Assembly (NCBI GenBank): GCA_964549075.1
Contig: CAZJUB010000041.1
Span: forward strand, 10,857-22,097
Source: an uncultured archaeon
GTDB lineage: Archaea; Asgardarchaeota; Heimdallarchaeia; Heimdallarchaeales; Heimdallarchaeaceae
Direction: 5' to 3'
DNA: 11,241 nucleotides
Below, one piece after another: positions 1,456-11,241 of the stretch. The translations under genes and the position numbers were made by a program. How positions within the stretch are numbered: position 1 is the stretch's first letter; each line of letters opens with the position of its first letter. A model generated the notes under the pieces. It ran no database searches. It worked only from the letters and a program-made list of their open reading frames with translations, and was not told the origin of the DNA.

Positions 1456-1478
1456 TTTCTCTTCCTTTTTTTTTATTT
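1456..1478 (+). terminator. Pyrimidine/oligo-T tract, archaeal-type intrinsic terminator
   Basis: TTTCTCTTCC followed by T9 (1466-1474) immediately after the TAA at 1453-1455. Confidence 0.55.
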
Positions 1479-1635
1479 AATTCCTTTAATAAAGTGTCAT
1501 TATGTTAAAAAAACAGGATAAAGCACTCCACAATCATTCTTATTTTTATGAAAAAATTACAAAAAAGATAATCTTATATTCTACATAAAATATAGATATC
1601 ATTACAAGTAAAACAAAAAAATGTGCTAGATTAGA

Positions 1636-2991
1636 TTGAATAAAATGATTAATGTTTCCTATAAGTGCGACAAAAGATTTAATCTATTTGTTAATAACAA
1701 AAAGTATTATGTAGATTTTCCAAAATTCAATGATTTTACTCTGGCTGATGTAATTGGAAATAACTTAAGTTTAATGTACACATATCACTTGGGATTAATA
1801 CAAAACAAAGCTGTAAAATATAATTCATCAATACCTTATTTCCAAACTCAGATTTTAAAAAACATACTTTACGATTTACCTTCTTGTACAACAAAAGATA
1901 ACCATTTAACGATGGAGTCTCTTTTAAAACGCTTTTATAATTTAAAACCTGAATATACTTCTCCTTATTTGGAAGACGAACAGATTTCATATCCATATGA
2001 AGCTAATAAAGAGAAAGTAAGTTTAGCTTTTTCATTTGGGAAAGACAGTTTGTTATCTCTACTACTTGCTCAAGAATTAGGGAAAGAAGTTCAACCAATT
2101 TATGTCATTGAACATAGCATGAAATATGAATATAAGAATAAGATAAAATTGATACAGGATTTTGAAAAAGAACAAAATATCACAACAAGAATCTTAGATA
2201 ACAACATTTCATTATTAAGGGATCCAGAACATCTCAATTGCACTCCTGATGAAGCAGAGCTCTCTTGGGGAACACAAAACACCCAATATTCCTTTATGTT
2301 ATTACCTTATGTGAGATTACATGAATCATCCGCAATTCTGTTTGGTAATGAGTTTACCACAAATACTCTATATTATAATGATGAAGGATATGAAACTAAT
2401 CCCTGTTTTGACCAATCCTCACAATGGACCAATGAAATATCAGCGATGATTCGTAAAATTACCGAAAATAAGGTAAGCGTGACTTCATATATTGAACCAT
2501 TCACAGACATATTAGTTATGGCGACACTTACAAATCGCTATCCAGAGATGATAAAATACATTATGTCTTGTTTTGGAGGACAAAATGAGAGATGGTGTCA
2601 TGCTTGTGATATATGTGCAAAAATGTATCTAATGTTAGTAGCTGTAGGTATTGATCCTAAATTCGCAGGTTATAATCAAGATATGTTGAAAGGGGGAAAC
2701 GCACACTTTTTCTCGATCTTTGGTGGAAAGAGTCAGTATCAATATCTTAATACTACAACAGCACATAACGAACAATTATTTAATTTTGAATTGGCTTATA
2801 AACGAGGGAATAGAAGCCAGTTAACTATTAAAGCTCATGAATTATTTCAAAAGGAAGAAAAGGATTTTGAACAATTATTTGATTATTTTATTACCTTTAA
2901 AAATCCGATTACTATCAAATCTAAAGAAACAATTAACCAACTAAAGGTCATTCATGATGAGACAACAAATAATGTTTTTGACAAAATATAA
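1636..2991 (+). CDS. PP-loop (N-type ATP pyrophosphatase) enzyme with Cys4 metal site; MurL-like / QueC-superfamily adenylating enzyme
   Basis: PP-loop variant SFGKDS (2032-2049, residues 133-138). C-x8-C-x2-C-x2-C (SCFGGQNERWCHACDIC, 2569-2616). Central LFGNE...TNPCFDQS segment. About 130-aa N-terminal domain and 451 aa total, far longer than classical QueC. Start is TTG 1636 or ATG 1645. Confidence 0.7.
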   Translation: MNKMINVSYKCDKRFNLFVNNKKYYVDFPKFNDFTLADVIGNNLSLMYTYHLGLIQNKAVKYNSSIPYFQTQILKNILYDLPSCTTKDNHLTMESLLKRFYNLKPEYTSPYLEDEQISYPYEANKEKVSLAFSFGKDSLLSLLLAQELGKEVQPIYVIEHSMKYEYKNKIKLIQDFEKEQNITTRILDNNISLLRDPEHLNCTPDEAELSWGTQNTQYSFMLLPYVRLHESSAILFGNEFTTNTLYYNDEGYETNPCFDQSSQWTNEISAMIRKITENKVSVTSYIEPFTDILVMATLTNRYPEMIKYIMSCFGGQNERWCHACDICAKMYLMLVAVGIDPKFAGYNQDMLKGGNAHFFSIFGGKSQYQYLNTTTAHNEQLFNFELAYKRGNRSQLTIKAHELFQKEEKDFEQLFDYFITFKNPITIKSKETINQLKVIHDETTNNVFDKI

Positions 2992-2995
2992 TTTT

Positions 2996-3002
2996 GGAGG
3001 GT
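2996..3002 (+). promoter_or_regulatory. Shine-Dalgarno-like motif for the PLP enzyme gene
   Basis: GGAGGGT ends 9 nt before ATG 3012, which favours 3012 over TTG 2994 as the start. Confidence 0.55.
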
Positions 3003-3011
3003 AACAGTACA

Positions 3012-4112
3012 ATGATAATAGAACCAGGAAATACACCAGTTATCAAGTCTAAAATCTTCTCTAAATTATGGGGGATACCTGAATTATACTACAAACTTGA
3101 AGGAATAAATCCAACAGGAACTCATAAAGATCGAATCGCAAGTAGTATATGCCAATATGCAAAAAAAGAAGGATTTGAGACTGTTGCTGTGGCAACTTGT
3201 GGCAATTTTGGTGCTTCAATAGCATACTATGCTAAAGTAAATTCACTCATATGCAGAGTTTATATCCCAGAAAATTATCATAGTACTAGATTAAGGGATA
3301 TTATAGGAGTTGGAGCCTCAATACATTATCTACCAGGAAAATATGAAGATGTTGTAAAAAAATGTGGTGAAATAAGTGAACAAAATGGTTGGTTCAATGC
3401 ATCACCAAATAATAAGATTGTTAAGACAATTTCCTTTGATCAATACGGTGAAATTGCTAAAGAACTTGTTGACCAATTAAAAGAAATTAATTTGATTTCC
3501 ATTCCTGTTGGGAATGGTACTACGCTTGCAGGTATATATTATGGATTCTTAAAGGAATTTGAAAATGGAAGAATAGAACGAATTCCAACACTCATTGCTG
3601 CTTCCACTATTCATGGTAATCCAATAGTAACAAGTCTAAATAAAGAATTGAAACAGATTCTAATTTTAGAACCTGACTTGCTAAAAGAAACTGAAATTAA
3701 TGAACCTCTTATAAGTTATGAATCATTTGATGGGCAAGAAGCTCTAGATTTCTTAAATTCAACCAAAGGATATGCTTTCAATCTTGCTGATAGTTCAATG
3801 ATTAATGCTTCAAAACAGTTATATGATTTTGAGGGATTGAGTGTCCTTCCGGCATCAACTAGTTCTTTGTTAGCTGTAAATATGTGTGTAAAGAATAATC
3901 CTTCTTTAAAGAATAAGAAAATAGTTTGTATACTTACTGCACGTGGAAGTGTTGTACCTAGAGTTTCAAATGTTTCCAAAGTGCTTATGGCTTTGCATGA
4001 AGAAAGACCATATAAAGTAGGTGCAAAAACACCTCAGGAAGATAATCCAGCAGAAATCGTTGCTGTAACTAAACTAGAGGGTAAGAAAAAACAAATAATG
4101 AAAGTGGAGTGA
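3012..4112 (+). CDS. PLP-dependent fold-type II enzyme, threonine-synthase-like but atypical
   Basis: GNTP, KLEGINPTGTHKDR (Schiff-base Lys at 3126-3128), ATCGNFG, phosphate loop PVGNGTT, LPAS and ILTA, followed by a C-terminal extension of about 55 aa. The ORF track starts at TTG 2994; ATG 3012 has the SD. Confidence 0.85.
   Translation: MIIEPGNTPVIKSKIFSKLWGIPELYYKLEGINPTGTHKDRIASSICQYAKKEGFETVAVATCGNFGASIAYYAKVNSLICRVYIPENYHSTRLRDIIGVGASIHYLPGKYEDVVKKCGEISEQNGWFNASPNNKIVKTISFDQYGEIAKELVDQLKEINLISIPVGNGTTLAGIYYGFLKEFENGRIERIPTLIAASTIHGNPIVTSLNKELKQILILEPDLLKETEINEPLISYESFDGQEALDFLNSTKGYAFNLADSSMINASKQLYDFEGLSVLPASTSSLLAVNMCVKNNPSLKNKKIVCILTARGSVVPRVSNVSKVLMALHEERPYKVGAKTPQEDNPAEIVAVTKLEGKKKQIMKVE
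4106..4112 (+). promoter_or_regulatory. Shine-Dalgarno-like motif overlapping the upstream stop codon
   Basis: GGAGTGA contains the TGA of the PLP gene and lies 7 nt before ATG 4120, suggesting translational coupling. Confidence 0.5.
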
Positions 4113-4119
4113 AGTTAAA

Positions 4120-5208
4120 ATGAAAAATAAAATCAAAGTAGTAGTAACATGTAATTTGCGAACAGAAGAAGACGAATTTCAGATGGAATTTGATCCAGAA
4201 CATACTATCGAGTTAATAGTAAAATCTCTCCTAAAACATGGATATGATACAACTTTCGTAGATGCTAGTTCTCCTGATCTTATAGAGAAGCTACGAGCAG
4301 AAAAACCAGACATAGTGTTTAACAGATCTGAAGGTTTCATCTATATGAAAAATAGAGAATCACTAGTACCAGCAATTCTTGAATCCATGCGAATACCTTT
4401 TGTTGGAGCTGATGTCCTTGGTACAGCTATAGGACAAAACAAGAAAATATCTAAAACTATTGCTGCTTCTCTTCTTATTCCAACTCCTAGAGATTATTTT
4501 CTAAATCCTTACAATTATACTAAGATGATTAGAAAATTAGAAAAGGATGTAAAAGCGAAACTAATACAATATCCTCTTGTAATAAAGCCAGTATATGAAG
4601 GTAGTTCCTTTGGTGTGAAGTTAGTATACAATAAAAAAGAATTAACTGATTATGCTTCAGAATATATGCAAAAATTAAACAAACCTGTTATTGTTGAAGA
4701 ATTCATCTCTGGAGATGAATATAGTATTGGATTATTAGGTAATGGGGACAATATAGATGTCTTACCTTTGATTAGAATCAAAACTGAAAAATTCACAGAT
4801 AACGATTTTGTATTTGATAGTTATGCAAAATCACACGATGACTTAAAGTATTATGAATGCCCAGCAAAAATAGAACCAGAATTAAAAGAGAAACTAATAG
4901 AATATGCTAAAGCAATTTTTGAAGCAGCATATTGTTATGATTTTGCTAGATTAGATTTTAGAATTAGAGATGGAATTCCGTATTTTCTTGAAGTCAATCC
5001 ATTGCCAGGTTTGGATTATGATACAGTTAACAACGATATCAGCTTTTATCCTTTAATGGCTGTTAGAGGAAAACTCTCATATGATGAAATGGTTCATAAA
5101 ATCCTTCTTTCAGCAATCAAAAGATACCCCCAACTAAATAAGAAGGCAATGAGACTAAGAAAAAAAGCTGAGAATGGTACTAACGAAGCGAAGAAAAAAA
5201 TCAAATAG
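4120..5208 (+). CDS. ATP-grasp amino acid ligase, D-Ala-D-Ala ligase-like (non-canonical subfamily)
   Basis: KPVYEGSSFG, VEEFISGDEYSIG, ARLDFR and LEVNPLPGL motifs. The N-terminus has EFD..TI and FNRSEG...RESLVPAILE instead of the Ddl motifs GGxSxEHxVS and LHGxxGEDG. Confidence 0.85.
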   Translation: MKNKIKVVVTCNLRTEEDEFQMEFDPEHTIELIVKSLLKHGYDTTFVDASSPDLIEKLRAEKPDIVFNRSEGFIYMKNRESLVPAILESMRIPFVGADVLGTAIGQNKKISKTIAASLLIPTPRDYFLNPYNYTKMIRKLEKDVKAKLIQYPLVIKPVYEGSSFGVKLVYNKKELTDYASEYMQKLNKPVIVEEFISGDEYSIGLLGNGDNIDVLPLIRIKTEKFTDNDFVFDSYAKSHDDLKYYECPAKIEPELKEKLIEYAKAIFEAAYCYDFARLDFRIRDGIPYFLEVNPLPGLDYDTVNNDISFYPLMAVRGKLSYDEMVHKILLSAIKRYPQLNKKAMRLRKKAENGTNEAKKKIK

Positions 5209-5231
5209 CAAAGAATTAAGGAGAGCACCAT

Positions 5232-5735
5232 ATGAGCAGTTTAGAGCATGTTCTCATGAATGGAAAGAATATGCTAAATAGAATCTCAAATTTCTTGGAA
5301 CTTGAACAAACTAATTTTAGTCAAGAATTACAAGATTCTTTTGATGAGCTTGAGCAGAAACTCAACAAAGAAGGTACTTTCGTTTTATACAGACAAGTAA
5401 ATGATATTATTGAAGATTTTATCATTTTTACTGAAAATGATGAAGATGCGCTTGAACATGGGATCTATCTTGATATTTTCGTTGTTAAAGAGAAAGGTAA
5501 AGGATTTGGTAAGAAAATGGAACAAGTACTCTGTACAATTTTAACAAATCTCGGGTATACTTCTATATCCTTGAGAACTGAAGAAAAACCTACAAAAGAA
5601 GGGATTGATTTAATTAGATGGTATTCTAAACTCGGTTATCAGGTTATAGATAAGGATGATAGAGGGGTGTTAATGAGAAAATTTCTTGAAGCTAGCAAGA
5701 CAAATCCAAGTCAAACTACTCAATCAGTCCAATAA
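5232..5735 (+). CDS. GNAT-family N-acyltransferase
   Basis: Acetyl-CoA loop IFVVKEKGKGFGKK and the C-terminal WYSKLGY motif. AAGGAG SD at 5218-5223, 23 nt after the ligase stop. Confidence 0.75.
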   Translation: MSSLEHVLMNGKNMLNRISNFLELEQTNFSQELQDSFDELEQKLNKEGTFVLYRQVNDIIEDFIIFTENDEDALEHGIYLDIFVVKEKGKGFGKKMEQVLCTILTNLGYTSISLRTEEKPTKEGIDLIRWYSKLGYQVIDKDDRGVLMRKFLEASKTNPSQTTQSVQ

Positions 5736-5740
5736 TGCTG

Positions 5741-5759
5741 TCTACTTTCTCTTTTTACT
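5741..5759 (+). terminator. Pyrimidine/T-rich tract, probable operon terminator
   Basis: TCTACTTTCTCTTTTTACT just after TAA 5733-5735, within the 57-nt gap between convergent genes. Confidence 0.4.
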
Positions 5760-5792
5760 AAATTCAAAGATTGAAATCAAGTAAATTTTCAT

Positions 5793-6881
5793 TCAGTGAG
5801 TATCAGTATTATACTTTTCTAAGAAATGCTCTAATTCAGTCTTAGTGAAATCTACTATTTTTTCAGAATCCCATTTTTCGTACCCAAGAGCTCTATTTAT
5901 CCTGTGCATATGAATATTAACAGAAGAACTTCCTGTCGACCAAACTTTTGCTTTTGTAGTCGATAGTAATGTCTCTAACATTTGATATTTCATTGCTAAC
6001 CCAAGACCATTTCCCCTATGTTCAGGAAGAACTCCTGTATCCCACTGCCAAGCAACATGAGGTTGATAATTATCCAGTACAGAAGTAGTAAGACCAACAG
6101 GTTTACCTGTATCTTTGTGAATAGCGATAAAAGTATAGAAAGTATCCCATTTTTTTTGATTAATTAAGCATAGTTCGTTAAATCTTTCAAGATTCAATTT
6201 CGTGTCCTCTATTGAAAGCTCTTCTCTAGGCATATCATTTCTTACACATTCCACAAGATCAACAAAAGAAGAATAGTCCACATAATTATTATAATCTAAA
6301 CCTTCAACAAATATAATTTCATATCCTGATTTCAATGCTTTTTCATTTAGCTTTTTAGCTTGTTTTGAAACTTCAGCTAGATCTTTTGTTTCAAGATTCA
6401 AATCAAACAGAATTTCTTCATAAGAAGGTTCTATATCAGCTGAAAAATAAAATTCAGCACCTTCTGAATCATTCATAAAGGCAGTTGAAATTTTAGTAAT
6501 TTGAGCTGGTACAGATTTAACCATTTCTTTTAACATAATAATTCTATTAGTCATTTTATCTTCATTATCATTCAAATAGACAAGAAACCATGCTTGGTCT
6601 AAATTATCATATTTAATATTGAAACCTAACCATGCATATGCTTGAACATTATCAGTTTCATCAATTCCTGCAAATCTGATAGTTTTTTGCCATGATAAAT
6701 CCGAAATCTTCCATTGCTTTCTAAAATAATCCAACTTTGGAGGATCAAAAGTATGATTCTCTCTTTCTTTTTTTTGCATAAGTTGAAAGATACTTTCACA
6801 GTATTTCTCAGGGATATCGCTTTTCTTATCACTTGAAATGATCTTTTGAATTTTCATTTTGTCAAACACAGATAAGACCAT
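5793..6881 (-). CDS. Two-domain (tandem) GNAT-family acetyltransferase
   Basis: C-terminal GNAT with DTGVLPEHRGNGLGLAMK and NIHMHRINRALGY. The N-terminal half is GNAT-sized but lacks a recognisable CoA loop. The true start may be ATG 6857 (MKIQK). Confidence 0.8.
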   Translation of the reverse strand: MVLSVFDKMKIQKIISSDKKSDIPEKYCESIFQLMQKKERENHTFDPPKLDYFRKQWKISDLSWQKTIRFAGIDETDNVQAYAWLGFNIKYDNLDQAWFLVYLNDNEDKMTNRIIMLKEMVKSVPAQITKISTAFMNDSEGAEFYFSADIEPSYEEILFDLNLETKDLAEVSKQAKKLNEKALKSGYEIIFVEGLDYNNYVDYSSFVDLVECVRNDMPREELSIEDTKLNLERFNELCLINQKKWDTFYTFIAIHKDTGKPVGLTTSVLDNYQPHVAWQWDTGVLPEHRGNGLGLAMKYQMLETLLSTTKAKVWSTGSSSVNIHMHRINRALGYEKWDSEKIVDFTKTELEHFLEKYNTDTH

Positions 6882-6917: not shown

Positions 6918-6941
6918 TCTAAGGTAGTGATTTTGTTATCT

Positions 6942-8480
6942 ATGAAAAATCAGCTCTCAATCGTTTTTATCCTCCTCATGATTGCTTCTCCTTTTACTCT
7001 TATTGAAACACACTCTCAACAAACTAATCCAATCATTGTCGATTATATTTATGCTAACAGTAAAATCATATCTCTAGATGAAACTAGTTCAATATATGAA
7101 GCAATAGCGATCAAAGATGGAGCAATCGTAGCTTTAGGTAGTACTGAAGATATTCTAGCGAACTATGAAGCAACAAATAATCAGTGTTATAACCTTGAAG
7201 GACGAACAATTATGCCCGGTATAATTGATGGACACACACACTATATGGCATCTTTGTTTTGGGTAGGCGATACAGGAAACATCTATGATGCTCAGAATCT
7301 AGCTTTAGCTAATGGCTATACTACTTTAAATGAAAAAAGCATAGATATTGGAGAACTTGAGTGGATGCAAAGTGCAGAACAAGATGGTACTCTTCGTCTG
7401 AGAGTTAATTGTTTTCTAATATACAATTTTGCTTGGTTAGAAGATGGCCATCCTGTACTAGTTGGAGCGTGGGAACCTGATGTTGCTCCAGTTAATGACC
7501 ATGATAGAAAATTACGAATTCCTGGTTTCAAAATCTACTCTGATGGTGCTGGGGGGAATAGAGGAGCACCTGCAATGAGTATTCCTTATACTCCTGAAAT
7601 GATGGCTGATTGGGGGATAAACAGTACCTATGGTGATCTCTATTTCAATCAAACTGAACTTAATACAATTGTTGATTCTCTTCAAGATAGAGGTTTTATT
7701 GTCGCATTTCATTCAATGGGAGATAGGTCAACTGAAACAGTGCTTAATGCCATAGAATACGCACTCAACGGTTCTACAAATGACAATTATAGACACCAAA
7801 TAGAGCACAACAGCTTCATTAGACCAGACCTTATCACTCAAGCTCAGAATTTGCACACCATTCATTCCGTTAGAGGATATTTTCCAACATATTGGCAAGA
7901 TGAATATGATGCACTCTACAATGAAACATGGAAAGACTGGTATATGAACAGATATTCATTACCAAGTGTGGTTCATGCTTATCTAGAAACAGATTTCTCA
8001 TATTTATATGGCTATGATGAAGACGATTGGAGTAGATCACCAAATATCAGACCATTTTTACATCTTTGGGGATTGGTTACTAGAAAAGCAATTGATGTAA
8101 ATGGTACAATACATGAACCAGATCCTTGGGTAGCAAATCATACAATAACAGTGGAACAAGCATTAAGAATGATGACTATAGAAGGAGCCTATGCTGTTAA
8201 GCAAGAGGATTATATAGGTTCTCTAGAAGTAGGAAAATATGCTGATTTAATTGTTCTGACAGCTGATCCTTTAACAATAAATCCTGATAATCTGAAAGAT
8301 ATTGAAGTCATGATCAATATGATAGACGGAAAAGTAGAATTTCAAATAGCAAGTCATACATTCCCTCTACCTTATCCACCATCAACTCCAGCAGATACTG
8401 AACCAACTTCTTGGATAGTACTATTCTCAATTCTTGGATTAACCTGTATTACTTCAATTACTAGAGTAAAAAGAGAGTAA
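6942..8480 (+). CDS. Secreted, C-terminally anchored metal-dependent amidohydrolase (Amidohydro_3 / YtcJ-like)
   Basis: Signal peptide MKNQLSIVFILLMIASPFTLI. Catalytic motifs MPGIIDGHTH, GFKIYSDG, AFHSMGD, RHQIEH, ETDF and GSLEVGKYADLIVL. Pro/Thr linker, TM helix and RVKRE at the C-terminus. The ORF track starts at GTG 6927. Confidence 0.88.
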   Translation: MKNQLSIVFILLMIASPFTLIETHSQQTNPIIVDYIYANSKIISLDETSSIYEAIAIKDGAIVALGSTEDILANYEATNNQCYNLEGRTIMPGIIDGHTHYMASLFWVGDTGNIYDAQNLALANGYTTLNEKSIDIGELEWMQSAEQDGTLRLRVNCFLIYNFAWLEDGHPVLVGAWEPDVAPVNDHDRKLRIPGFKIYSDGAGGNRGAPAMSIPYTPEMMADWGINSTYGDLYFNQTELNTIVDSLQDRGFIVAFHSMGDRSTETVLNAIEYALNGSTNDNYRHQIEHNSFIRPDLITQAQNLHTIHSVRGYFPTYWQDEYDALYNETWKDWYMNRYSLPSVVHAYLETDFSYLYGYDEDDWSRSPNIRPFLHLWGLVTRKAIDVNGTIHEPDPWVANHTITVEQALRMMTIEGAYAVKQEDYIGSLEVGKYADLIVLTADPLTINPDNLKDIEVMINMIDGKVEFQIASHTFPLPYPPSTPADTEPTSWIVLFSILGLTCITSITRVKRE

Positions 8481-8490
8481 ATAATGAAAA

Positions 8491-8526
8491 TAGAGGAATT
8501 TTCTCCTCTAATTATGATTTTATTTA
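8491..8526 (+). terminator. Hairpin plus T-rich tail after the amidohydrolase gene
   Basis: TAGAGGA (8491-8497) pairs with TCCTCTA (8504-8510): perfect 7-bp stem, 6-nt loop, followed by ATTATGATTTTATTT. Confidence 0.45.
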
Positions 8527-8547
8527 TGACTATATAATTACAACTGA

Positions 8548-8563
8548 GACAAAAGTTTATATA
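8548..8563 (+). promoter_or_regulatory. BRE-TATA promoter of the PNPOx-like/MarR operon
   Basis: GACAAAAG followed by a consensus-like archaeal TATA box TTTATATA (8556-8563). Confidence 0.6.
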
Positions 8564-8598
8564 GTTCGACATAATATTGTTCGATATCGAACTATATT
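8559..8598 (+). promoter_or_regulatory. Palindromic operator, probable MarR binding site
   Basis: Perfect 14-bp palindrome GTTCGATATCGAAC (8579-8592) extends to 26 bp with one mismatched pair (8573-8598). An extra half-site ATATAGTTCGA (8559-8569) overlaps the TATA box. Confidence 0.7.
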
Positions 8599-8607
8599 GT
8601 GATACAT

Positions 8608-9054
8608 ATGAAAAAAGGAGAAATGATAGAAGAAGCAATAAAAAAATCTCTCGAATTGGTTAATAGAAGCAATATTGCTATGGTAGGGACTATAGGTAAT
8701 GACAATTTTCCAAACATCAAGGCGATGATAAATGCCAAGCATGATGGTTTGAAAGAGATATGGTTTTCCACAAATACTTCATCAAAGAGGATAACACAAT
8801 TAAAACTCAGCAATAAAACATGTGTTTATTTTGTTGATTTTGACGAGTGGGAGGGACTGATGTTAATAGGAAAGACTGAAATCAAACGAGACAAAGAATC
8901 TAGGGAAATGCTCTGGGAAGAAGGTTGTGAGCAATATTATCCTCTAGGAATAGATGATCCAGATTACTCTGTATTGCATTTTACAGCTGAAACAGGAGAT
9001 TATTACAAAAGTCCATGCAAAGTTTCTTTTCTAATACCGGAAAATTTAGAATGA
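8608..9054 (+). CDS. Pyridoxamine 5'-phosphate oxidase-like FMN-binding split-barrel protein (general stress protein 26-like)
   Basis: VGTIGNDNFPNIKAM, IWFSTNTSSKRITQL, GLMLIG and YYPLGIDDPDYSVLHF are typical of this family. Start is uncertain (GTG 8599, ATG 8608 or ATG 8623). Confidence 0.85.
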   Translation: MKKGEMIEEAIKKSLELVNRSNIAMVGTIGNDNFPNIKAMINAKHDGLKEIWFSTNTSSKRITQLKLSNKTCVYFVDFDEWEGLMLIGKTEIKRDKESREMLWEEGCEQYYPLGIDDPDYSVLHFTAETGDYYKSPCKVSFLIPENLE

Positions 9055-9079
9055 ATAAAAACAAGGATAATTGAATATA

Positions 9080-9514
9080 ATGAAAAGACAGAGCAAAGGT
9101 GGTTTCCTTATTTCGAAGATTCACCAAATTTCGGGACGAATCTTTACAAAATTATTAAAACAAAGCAAATTAGATATGATCAACACAGCACAAGGAAGGA
9201 TCATGTTTCCTTTATGGAGAGAGGATGGGATATCAATTGTAAAACTTACGAAGGAAACAGCTCTAACTAAATCTACATTAACATCAATGTTAGACCGGCT
9301 AGAAGAATCAGGTTATTTACAAAGAGTTCCATCAAAAAAAGATAGACGCAAAATACTGATTTATTTGACAGAAGAAGGAAAAAGACTTCAAGAGAGATAC
9401 GCAGGAGTATCACAAGAAATGACTAATCTTTTCTATAGAGGATTCACAGATTCAGAAATTGATGAATTTGAAAAATATTTGGAAAGAATACTTGAGAATC
9501 TTGTAAAAGTTTAG
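9080..9514 (+). CDS. MarR-family transcriptional regulator
   Basis: Winged helix LTKSTLTSMLDRLEESGYLQR..SKKDRRKILIYLTEEG. Start is TTG 9071 or ATG 9080. Confidence 0.93.
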   Translation: MKRQSKGGFLISKIHQISGRIFTKLLKQSKLDMINTAQGRIMFPLWREDGISIVKLTKETALTKSTLTSMLDRLEESGYLQRVPSKKDRRKILIYLTEEGKRLQERYAGVSQEMTNLFYRGFTDSEIDEFEKYLERILENLVKV

Positions 9515-9588
9515 AAAATCTGTAATTCCGGTGATAAGAATTGACATGTTAGACAGTACTAGTTCTTTCTGAAGTTAAAAAAGATTCT

Positions 9589-9602
9589 CCAAATATTTAA
9601 TA
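9589..9602 (+). promoter_or_regulatory. Putative BRE-TATA for the DUF362 gene
   Basis: CCAAATA-TTTAATA, with the box starting 28-31 nt before the tandem ATGs at 9624 and 9627. Confidence 0.35.
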
Positions 9603-9623
9603 GAAGGTCTTCATAGTAAAATA

Positions 9624-10457
9624 ATGATGCTAGATTCTGTAGCCTTGGTCAAATTTGAACAAGATTTAAAAAAAACTCTAAGAGAAGGTATTGAACTTAT
9701 TAATGGTTTTGACAGCCTTAAATCCCCAGTTATAATAAAGCCAAATATATGTACTCAAGAAGATAAGACAGGTTTTGCAGTAGTAAAAGTAAAAGTAGTT
9801 GAGGAGTTAATAAGATTAATTCTCAAAGAGAACAAGGATTTGTCCATTAAAATTGTAGAATCAGATAGTATGAGTAAGTTTGCAGATCAAGCTTTTGATA
9901 AATTTGGGTATAAAAAATTAGAAACAAAACTCGAGGAATCAGGTCATGATGTATCACTAATCAACTTAAGTCACTCTTCATTAACCGAGATAGAGTTTGA
10001 AGGTAATTACTTTAAAAAACCAGAACTTCCTGATATACTTGTGAAAGATAAATTTTTTATTTCACTTGCTCTTGCTAAAACTCACTATTTGACTGGTATA
10101 ACTGGTACATTAAAGAATCTATTCGGTTTATTACCTAGGAAAGATCAGTCCTTTTATCATCCAAATATCAATAATGTAATAGTCGATTTAGGGAGAATCA
10201 TTCAACCTAATCTTTGTATTGTGGATGCTAGAGTTGGTCTTGAAGGATGGGCAGGACCAAAATCTCGAGAGATAAATAGGTTCATAATAGGTAAACAATC
10301 CGCTTCAACAGATGCAGTTATGGCTAAAGTAATGGGATTGAGACCTGAAAAAATTCATCATGTAGTTGAAGCAACCAAATATAATCTTGGTTCGCTGAAT
10401 CCTAATGTTATCGGAGAAAAAATCGAAACTTCTAGAGTACAGTTTAATTATTCTTAA
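9624..10457 (+). CDS. DUF362 domain-containing protein
   Basis: VIIKPN, IVESD, KTHYLTGITGTLKNLFG, FYH, IVDA...EG.GP and D..MAKVMG are DUF362 signatures. There is no C-terminal ferredoxin Cys motif. Confidence 0.85.
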   Translation: MMLDSVALVKFEQDLKKTLREGIELINGFDSLKSPVIIKPNICTQEDKTGFAVVKVKVVEELIRLILKENKDLSIKIVESDSMSKFADQAFDKFGYKKLETKLEESGHDVSLINLSHSSLTEIEFEGNYFKKPELPDILVKDKFFISLALAKTHYLTGITGTLKNLFGLLPRKDQSFYHPNINNVIVDLGRIIQPNLCIVDARVGLEGWAGPKSREINRFIIGKQSASTDAVMAKVMGLRPEKIHHVVEATKYNLGSLNPNVIGEKIETSRVQFNYS

Positions 10458-10470
10458 TTCAAACCCTCTT

Positions 10471-11241
10471 TCATAAAATCTTAAGCTGCTCTGATGCGTT
10501 CAAGAATAACTGAAGTGCTTCTTCTTTTGTTTCTCCCCATGCAAGTAAACCTTCTGTATGACCGAGTAGACAGACTGGAGCTTTTAGTTTTGGCTGAGTT
10601 CTATAGACTTCTTGAATAGCTCTTGCTATTGCTGGTGTCCCATATTCTGCATCTTCTGGTGTTGTACTCATTGTTAATTTTTTATGACTTTCCCACATTT
10701 TTTTGTGATGTACATGTATAACACAGTTCACCTCTGGTGCAATTTCATAGATAGCAGCATGTGTCATAGACTCAGAGGAAGGTTTTGATTGACCTTTAGA
10801 GATTACTCTGTTATTGTCAATATCATAATCTAAGACTAAAGCATAGTCCTCGTTAGAAGTCTCCTTCTTTTCCCCAGTCTGCGAACCAGTTACTATAAAT
10901 TGACCATCAGCTGTATATCGCACACTTGTATTCCCAAAACCAATATTAGGTGTAACAGGATGATCAGGAGGGTAAACTCCAATAAGGTTTAGTTCCCACA
11001 GCTTATCTCTTAGTTGAGCTAAAGGTTCTACCAATCCTCTATCTACCTTCATCTCTGCGGTTCTATGGTCTAGTTTATACTTTATGACTCCTTCGATAGG
11101 ATTTGATATCATTTTATCTATAAGACTTTCAAGCTCATTATAATTGCTAAGACTGATAGTATCAGCTATTGGTTTTTCTTCAATAGTAACATGTATTCCT
11201 TTCATTCCAACAAATTCAGCTACTTCTACATCTTGTTCCCA
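10471..11241 (-). CDS. Class II aldolase/adducin-family (MtnB/FucA-like) domain protein, 5'-truncated, probably with an N-terminal HAD domain
   Basis: GFGNTSVR, FIVTGS, KPSSESMTHAAIY, CVIHVH, YGT and GHTEG give the metal-binding His set. The frame stays open from 11205 to the window edge (WEQDVEVAEFVG-MKGIHV). Confidence 0.8.
   Translation of the reverse strand, partial: WEQDVEVAEFVGMKGIHVTIEEKPIADTISLSNYNELESLIDKMISNPIEGVIKYKLDHRTAEMKVDRGLVEPLAQLRDKLWELNLIGVYPPDHPVTPNIGFGNTSVRYTADGQFIVTGSQTGEKKETSNEDYALVLDYDIDNNRVISKGQSKPSSESMTHAAIYEIAPEVNCVIHVHHKKMWESHKKLTMSTTPEDAEYGTPAIARAIQEVYRTQPKLKAPVCLLGHTEGLLAWGETKEEALQLFLNASEQLKIL

Follow-up and report, generated by a model that had tools for sequence, protein, structure and literature searches.

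What do four neighbouring genes make in an uncultured archaeon of the Heimdallarchaeaceae (Asgardarchaeota)? The question is raised by a stretch of 11,241 nucleotides (nt; GenBank assembly GCA_964549075.1, contig CAZJUB010000041.1, positions 10,857 to 22,097), referred to below as the window, whose positions 1636-5735 encode a MurL-family PP-loop enzyme (gene 1), a ThrC-like fold-type II pyridoxal 5'-phosphate (PLP) enzyme (gene 2), a Ddl-like ATP-grasp ligase (gene 3) and a divergent GNAT-fold acyltransferase (gene 4). We put the chances at about even that the four genes form a pathway for a small modified peptide that is independent of nonribosomal peptide synthetases (NRPS). In its working, such a set would resemble both the known NRPS-independent peptide pathways and the bacterial pair of a ligase and MurL, and in tests of family membership its enzymes fall outside MurL proper, QueC, ThrC and Ddl. 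The strongest regularity in our data is the pairing of the MurL-family enzyme with a ligase, which mirrors the MurD2/MurL pair.

Conservation and spread of the four-gene set

Prokaryote genomes, one per species, were scanned for gene 1 and yielded 231 places that encode a relative of it, the best 80 of which we examined. By tblastn, gene 3 lies near the gene-1 relative in 64 of these 80 loci, gene 2 in 47 and gene 4 in 35, and none of the window's seven other genes does so in any of them. Clustering of the neighbouring open reading frames (ORFs), a crude calling that takes the longest ORFs of at least 70 amino acids (aa) and is more sensitive than tblastn for gene 4, gave counts, the window included, of 64 loci for gene 3, 48 for gene 2 and 47 for gene 4. 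By the same clustering, the Ddl-like gene 3 pairs with the gene-1 relative in 63 of the 80 loci, and all four genes lie together within a few kb in 43 (44 with the window). The combination pointed out in an earlier sequence-only reading of the window is therefore conserved elsewhere, and across two domains of life. The next commonest neighbour family, a lineage-specific TPR family, occurs in just 16 loci, and no fifth gene is widely shared; the other recurrent neighbours (ArsR, NrdD, YhhN and OTCase) are likewise lineage-specific and unrelated. Three arrangements stand out: genes 1, 3 and 4 in this order followed by a convergent gene 2 (33 loci in a survey that counts the window), 2-1-3-4 (seven loci, in Spirochaetota and Borrarchaeota) and 1-2-3-4 (two loci, the window and its closest relative, L002). 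Several partial sets (L018, L056 and L070) sit at contig ends.

The archaeal holders of gene-1 relatives are Thor-, Heimdall-, Hermod-, Hod-, Borr- and Promethearchaeota, Bathyarchaeia and one metagenome-assembled genome (MAG) of Nitrososphaeria, and the bacterial ones are Spirochaetota plus one MAG labelled Actinomycetota. The gene-1 protein of this last locus (L017) is near-identical to that of a bathyarchaeotal one with the same layout (L024; end branches of 0.05 and 0.017), and its contig is probably mis-binned or else reflects a very recent transfer. As sediment heterotrophs (Asgard archaea, Bathyarchaeia and Spirochaetota) figure as holders, the set could be imagined to salvage or detoxify D-amino acids or the peptidoglycan debris of dead sediment biomass: D-amino acids are substrates of Ddl-family ligases, MurL-type enzymes work on stereocentres, and GNATs are known for the detoxification of D-amino acids. 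We hold such a function to be highly improbable, since two ATP-consuming, bond-forming enzymes would be odd in a breakdown route and since the set has no conserved peptidase, transporter or amidohydrolase beside it; the amidohydrolase encoded at 6927-8480 of the window is found in 0 of the 80 loci.

In a tree of gene 1 (93 rows, computed with a quick method and rooted at the midpoint), all 44 rows with four genes fall within one clade of 52 (Shimodaira-Hasegawa-like approximate likelihood ratio test, SH-aLRT, 90), in which the spirochaete rows are nested among archaeal ones. The pairwise identities of the four proteins covary, with Spearman coefficients of 0.82-0.88 over 41 complete loci (three fragmented loci were dropped), as would be expected of a set that moves together, and L002 is the window's nearest relative for all four proteins (66, 59, 61 and 46% identity).

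Within its own genus and order, gene 1 was found in one of 41 genomes, this one alone, and was not found in the 24 others of the same genus and the 16 of the same order that were searched (63-94% complete). The site itself can be recognised in a same-genus genome, G020, in which orthologues of the upstream membrane protein, the convergent GNAT-domain gene and the amidohydrolase of the window follow one another in the same order (64%, 56% and 71% identity). There, the membrane-protein and GNAT-domain orthologues lie at most 280 bp apart, where the window has 4.3 kb, and genes 1-4 gave no match in G020. Because these flanking genes are adjacent in G020 without genes 1-4, the comparison of the two sites indicates that the four genes were gained or lost together, as a cassette. 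The set appears self-contained and horizontally spread, which would make it a trait moving between archaea and bacteria in anoxic sediments; at its boundaries, no direct or inverted repeats of note were found that would mark a mobile element.

A patchy, cassette-like occurrence with an empty site in the same genus would also suit a 'Trojan-horse' dipeptide antimetabolite, for which the PLP enzyme would build a toxic warhead, the ligase would hide it and the GNAT would acetylate the free warhead for self-protection. Tabtoxin and related pathways follow this pattern of an ATP-grasp ligase, a warhead enzyme and a GNAT resistance gene. We nevertheless regard such a product as improbable: no exporter, regulator or immunity copy of a target is conserved beside the set, and the 35-45% identity of the four proteins across phyla, together with their steady co-divergence, suits genes with a physiological role better than fast-changing warfare loci.

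Outside the clade of complete sets, the distant gene-1 branches (DPANN, Methanosarcinales and the candidate phyla radiation, CPR) are accompanied by one to three Ddl-like ligases, without the PLP enzyme or the GNAT. Further MurL-like layouts were seen in L044, L048, L053, L060, L062, L066, L068, L071-L074 and L080 as well as in L057 (4238-7783) and L078 (3740-7876), where the MurL-like genes of DPANN, CPR and uncultured Gammaproteobacteria form tandem or convergent paralogue pairs or stand beside up to three Ddl-like ATP-grasp genes. These loci have neither the PLP enzyme nor the GNAT and may represent other peptide systems of ligase and epimerase. Ten loci of Thorarchaeota type (e.g., L038, 13666-17226) encode, 5-7 kb from the module, a protein of some 1186 aa that combines 12 bacterial TSP3 repeats with a Ca-binding domain assigned to the Pfam family Binary_toxB; this arrangement looks like lineage synteny only.

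The four enzymes and their housekeeping relatives

Judged by profiles, alignments and structure models, none of the four proteins is a housekeeping enzyme. The families to which the sequence-only reading had assigned them (PP-loop with four cysteines, fold-type II PLP, Ddl-like ATP-grasp and GNAT) were upheld, and its observation that the first three deviate from their housekeeping relatives holds as well, as the ThrC, Ddl and QueC cut-offs are all missed and a canonical ThrC is encoded separately.

Gene 1 carries the PP-loop SFGKDS (residues 133-138, nt 2032-2049) and the four cysteines C312, C321, C324 and C327 (Cys-x8-Cys-x2-Cys-x2-Cys, nt 2569-2616), all of which are invariant in 22 relatives; the spacing of the cysteines is presumably that of the four-Cys site in QueC. 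For its AlphaFold2 (AF2) model, with a predicted local distance difference test (pLDDT) score of 90.7, the best Foldseek matches are to QueC-fold proteins, namely QatC, QueC, Cap9, LarE and TilS. QatC of the QatABCD system is the top match (E 1.3e-5, query TM-score, TMq, 0.40, 11% identity), and the QueC structures 2pg3 and 3bl5 are matched at E 6e-5 to 1.5e-4 (target TM-score, TMt, 0.65-0.73). With QueC/ToyM (7-cyano-7-deazaguanine synthase), gene 1 thus has the core fold, the PP-loop and the C-terminal four-Cys site in common, but it has double the length and additional domains at both termini, it scores 15.9 bits against Pfam QueC (PF06508), under the gathering threshold of 22, and it has no queuosine genes nearby.

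The sequence relationships of gene 1 lead instead to MurL, a link that had been hinted at from the sequence and is now backed by three lines of homology evidence. First, 20 of the 22 family members match the NCBIfam MurL model (NF041275) at E <= 0.1 (best 3e-11), all of them far below its equivalog cut-off of 700 bits, which gene 1 itself, with 15.1 bits (E 0.006), does not reach. Second, the clusters nearest to it in the protein Atlas are named MurL and carry the Pfam domains MurL_N and MurL_epimerase_C, and one of them is mostly archaeal. Third, alignment of the family profile by hhalign with P0163, a protein that has both MurL domains (PF26298 + PF26299), gave a probability of 98.5% (E 2.4e-15) over 285 columns and paired the PP-loop (GxKDS), a GNE-S motif and the cysteines; the C-terminal helical region is likewise shared, and the length of gene 1 is similar to that of MurL (about 450 aa). 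A Pfam scan of gene 1 gave PAPS_reduct, ATP_bind_3 and QueC only, each below threshold, a blank result that is uninformative because both MurL models were absent from the scanned set, in which P0163 itself gives no match. On this evidence, gene 1 belongs to the MurL family, if distantly, and is not a QueC. The family has few members (of 1.84 billion representatives, 183 match at E <= 1e-30 and 1448 at E <= 1e-3), and a sequence search of the PDB for solved relatives found just TtuA (E 0.68) and no MurL structure.

The structural match to QatC, with Cap9 also listed, invites the idea that the PP-loop enzyme modifies a protein or a tRNA, as these two QueC-like enzymes of anti-phage systems do, and that the set is a defence or macromolecule-modification system. 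We give this a very slim chance, as the likeness to QatC is at the level of the fold whereas the sequence links point to MurL, as PADLOC returned 0 matches for all four proteins, and as the neighbourhood has no conserved nuclease, ATPase or target protein.

Gene 2 matches Pfam PALP (3.5e-49) and, with 343.4 bits against a cut-off of 266, the NCBIfam family NF004996 (PRK06381), which bears the name 'threonine synthase'. Its score against the thrC model TIGR00260 is 81.5-82.3 bits, under the cut-off of 167.1, and it is another locus of the genome (C82) that encodes the canonical ThrC, with 193 bits against the same model. Because none of 14 control genomes, all of them threonine makers, has a PRK06381 member above the cut-off, the name of this subfamily lacks housekeeping backing. 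Like ThrC, gene 2 is a fold-type II PLP enzyme with its lysine in the motif NPTG-x-x-KDR (here NPTGTHKDR, the lysine codon at nt 3126-3128), which is kept as NPTG-T-x-KDR in the comparison with ThrC structures, the top matches in the PDB (best 2zsj, 2.4e-43). Unlike ThrC, its family has the loop TCGNFG, with an invariant Cys, in place of STGNT, and the segment NSVNP-x-R is not conserved, with no conserved Arg where it aligns; in ThrC, the STGNT loop and this Arg presumably bind the substrate phosphate. A paralogue of this kind beside a canonical ThrC may make or edit a non-standard amino acid. The gene-2 subfamily (1483 matches) is far larger than the gene-1 family; the cultured bacterium Rapidithrix thailandica has an annotated relative, P0047 (44% identity), and further ones occur in Bacteroidia and Desulfobacterales.

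Gene 3 matches Dala_Dala_lig_C (PF07478) at 2.1e-34, with 119 bits against a threshold of 24, and stays under all the listed NCBIfam cut-offs for Ddl and Van ligases, among them TIGR01205 (164.6 bits against 243) and NF002378 (150.1 against 245.65). Its family profile finds Ddl best in the PDB (3r23, 8e-39), followed by VanA (3.6e-36), with a weak match to L-amino-acid ligase (3e-15). The ATP-grasp core is kept: the invariant EGSS, Arg and Ser-Phe of the family align with S150, R255 and S281-L282 of Ddl, and R277 and S308 of gene 3 are the invariant residues at the positions that we take to hold the catalytic Arg and the carboxylate-binding Ser. The N-terminal region for the first substrate, in contrast, is the family's own. 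Profile positions 1-30 align with none of the three Ddl/VanA chains compared, the invariant motifs N-x-R...E-x-D-P...T, carried by this unaligned part, and N-R-x-E-G...R-E-S are specific to the family, and SEGxRGESRES replaces the HGxxGEDG of Ddl, so that its N-terminal D-Ala1 site (the Glu of GG-x-S-x-E together with HGxxGEDG) is not recognised in gene 3. Because the EGSS, Arg and Ser-Phe positions are kept, the second substrate would be an amino-acid nucleophile with a free carboxylate; this fits a ligase that forms a peptide bond and takes a first substrate unlike that of Ddl.

Gene 4 scores 18.0 bits against Pfam GNAT (PF00583), under the threshold of 20.7. Its AF2 model (pLDDT 89.1) has at least 500 matches in the PDB at E <= 0.001, and all those listed by Foldseek are GNAT acetyltransferases (E about 1e-8 to 1e-7, TM-scores 0.6-0.7). 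In 18 sequences of the family, a G-x-G (G91, G93), presumably the acetyl-CoA loop motif of GNATs, is invariant, and a D-T-E motif is found in addition. A predicted role is the N-acetylation of the product or of a precursor.

The PRK06381 match above its cut-off, and public annotations that name relatives of gene 2 'threonine synthase', could also be taken to mean that the genes are an ordinary ThrC, Ddl, QueC and acetyltransferase that became neighbours by chance. There is next to no chance of this, as the reading is already contradicted by the scores given above, by the genome distribution and by the co-occurrence of the four genes across domains: the thrC model fits the other locus, PRK06381 is not a mark of threonine makers, the Ddl and QueC models remain under their cut-offs, archaea need no D-Ala-D-Ala, and gene 1 was absent from the searches of 40 related genomes.

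A candidate ligase-then-epimerase route

In the pathway that we propose, the PLP enzyme would supply or edit a non-standard amino acid, the ATP-grasp ligase would join two amino acids via an acyl-phosphate and leave the C-terminal carboxylate free, the MurL-family enzyme would adenylate this carboxylate of the dipeptide and then invert the residue from L to D as MurL does (or, less likely, pass the activated carboxyl to ammonia and so form an amide), and the GNAT would acetylate the free amino group. The order of ligase and then epimerase is suggested because 63 of the 80 loci pair the gene-1 relative with the Ddl-like ligase, as in MurD2/MurL. According to the accounts of that pair in PMC5808125 and PMC8788868, MurL is an epimerase that depends on ATP and Mg, forms AMP and inverts the L-Glu at the C-terminus of a peptide in one direction only; it acts after the ligase MurD2, is described by its authors as without known domains, and serves with MurD2 in an alternative peptidoglycan route of Xanthomonas and some actinobacteria (Feng et al., 2017, as reported in the same two papers).

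In both cases, a ligase would add an amino acid and an adjacent MurL-family enzyme would act on the new C-terminal residue at the expense of ATP. The cassette differs in that the partner is a Ddl-like ATP-grasp enzyme and not a Mur ligase, none of which is encoded in the window, in that there is no UDP-MurNAc context, the host being an archaeon without peptidoglycan genes nearby, in that a PLP enzyme and a GNAT are added, and in the distance of gene 1 from MurL proper. The more specific proposal, that a MurL-type enzyme outside peptidoglycan synthesis sets the terminal D-residue on an N-acetylated dipeptide with a PLP-made unusual amino acid, in Asgard archaea, Bathyarchaeia and related sediment archaea as well as some spirochaetes, is possible but doubtful in our estimate.

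Several points weigh against the proposed pathway. The activity of gene 1 may differ from that of MurL, because it reaches 15 bits where the cut-off is 700 and forms a long branch (1.6) in the tree with L002 only, and its QueC fold would support amidation or nitrile chemistry equally. Gene 2 could be a racemase or a dehydratase and not a replacement enzyme, and its substrate loop, GNFG, resembles that of neither ThrC nor cysteine synthase. In clusters of this type, a GNAT can serve for self-resistance and not for biosynthesis. Finally, the 80 loci were ranked by likeness to the query, which favours the same subfamily, and the correlation of identities among the four proteins is also expected from shared descent alone.

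In the main alternative, the same pathway would end differently: gene 1 would amidate the C-terminus, and the product would be an N-acetyl dipeptide amide serving as a compatible solute, a functional analogue of N-acetylglutaminylglutamine amide (NAGGN). In the asnO-ngg pathway for this osmolyte (Sagot et al., 2010, as described in PMC8070244), two glutamines are acetylated and joined by Ngg, a GNAT fused to an ATP-grasp ligase, before AsnO turns the C-terminus into an amide. QueC and ToyM, in the account of PMC13060819, use ammonia to convert a carboxylate to an amide and further to a nitrile, a chemistry that the QueC fold of gene 1 brings to mind. NAGGN synthesis and the cassette would thus share a compact, NRPS-free trio of roles (acetylation by a GNAT, a peptide bond by an ATP-grasp enzyme and C-terminal activation by a PP-loop enzyme), and the stretch occurs in salt-marsh metagenomes, a habitat that gives context but is no evidence of function. 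Set against this, the closest characterised family of gene 1, MurL, is an epimerase; AsnO belongs to a different PP-loop family, being an amidotransferase of the asparagine synthetase B type with a glutaminase, while gene 1 is of MurL/QueC type and the module has neither a glutaminase domain nor a glutaminase partner. We therefore consider an amide product rather unlikely. The cassette further differs from the NAGGN pathway in that its GNAT and ATP-grasp enzymes are separate genes and in its PLP enzyme, which NAGGN synthesis lacks.

The literature search, which covered neither subscription-only papers nor supplements, found no published description of the four-part combination, nor of a MurL relative in archaea or linked to Ddl, in line with the earlier statement that no described pathway has this combination. 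MurL has so far been known for one reaction in one context, the synthesis of bacterial cell-wall precursors, and here a sister branch is tied into a four-enzyme cassette across Asgard and other sediment archaea without such a cell wall. If the proposed epimerisation is right, it would be the first role of the MurL family outside the cell wall and a dedicated archaeal route to a D-amino-acid peptide, whose product (solute, signal or antimetabolite) would be of an undescribed kind. The cassette also offers a concrete, expressible gene set for finding a new small peptide and a new tailoring reaction after ligation, with a stand-alone ligase and epimerase (or amidase) as parts of biocatalytic interest, and its function is open to direct test, given small enzymes of soluble appearance and 43 natural versions of the complete set at our disposal.

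Layout and surroundings of the cassette

The coordinates of the cassette and its flanks are collected in Table 1.

Table 1. Position of the four-gene cassette and its flanking regions in the window.
Feature	Position (nt)	Strand	Remarks
Whole cassette	1636-5735	+	four co-directional ORFs, candidate operon
Upstream intergenic region	1456-1635	+	T-rich tract, then AT-rich stretch, the likely (predicted) promoter region
Gene 1, MurL-family QueC-fold PP-loop ATP pyrophosphatase	1636-2991	+	451 aa; alternative ATG start at 1645
Gene 2, ThrC-like fold-type II PLP enzyme, PRK06381 subfamily	3012-4112	+	366 aa; 372 aa from TTG at 2994
Gene 3, Ddl-like ATP-grasp ligase, family-specific N-terminal substrate domain	4120-5208	+	362 aa
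Gene 4, divergent GNAT-fold acyltransferase	5232-5735	+	167 aa
Downstream spacer with T-rich tract, cassette end	5736-5792	+	precedes convergent gene 5793-6881

Direct reading of the junctions bears out the compact layout described in the sequence-only reading, including the Shine-Dalgarno-like motifs that it placed before genes 2-4. The TAA of gene 1 is followed by GGAGG and, after a gap of 20 nt, by the ATG of gene 2 (2 nt if the alternative TTG start is used); GTGGAG stands just before the TGA of gene 2, 7 nt ahead of the ATG of gene 3; and GGAGA lies in the 23 nt between the TAG of gene 3 and the ATG of gene 4. The T-rich tracts that had been noted on both sides were read at about 1457-1476, directly after the stop of the preceding membrane-protein gene, and at about 5745-5758, after that of gene 4. 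Oligo-T tracts are established terminators of archaeal transcription; a scan for hairpin terminators of the bacterial type found none at either flank. GC content over 1501-2000 is 0.246. The sole small ORF upstream of gene 1 encodes 28 aa (1502-1588) and is unconserved; apart from it, there is no candidate for a carrier protein or precursor peptide, the gaps within the cluster being too short for a gene. Pfam and NCBIfam scans of the window's proteins found no mur, thr or que genes, as had been stated.

The archaeal origin that had been called probable is supported by the large subunit of PolD (DP2), which scores 371 bits in this genome and, among the 14 control genomes, has matches in only three, all of them archaeal; the assembly (89.7% complete) contains no 16S rRNA gene. 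The DNA sequencing runs that hold the stretch are salt-marsh metagenomes, nine of them with at least half of the sampled words.

Upstream of the cassette, 19-1455 encodes a polytopic membrane protein of 478 aa without a Pfam or NCBIfam match, three copies of which (24-64% identity) occur on a same-genus contig, L099 (2748-3920, 4229-5413 and 8741-9826). The convergent gene downstream (5793-6881, minus strand) encodes a 362-aa protein with a C-terminal GNAT domain; it lies outside the module (0 of the 80 loci) and belongs to a large paralogue family of the genus, which has eight matches in this genome and is represented in 23 of the 25 genomes of the genus. The remaining part of the window (6927-11205) encodes the amidohydrolase, whose N-terminus is signal-like, together with a PNPOx-like, a MarR regulator, a DUF362 and a class II aldolase protein. 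None of these genes travels with the module, and a same-genus genome shows synteny for the amidohydrolase and the aldolase.

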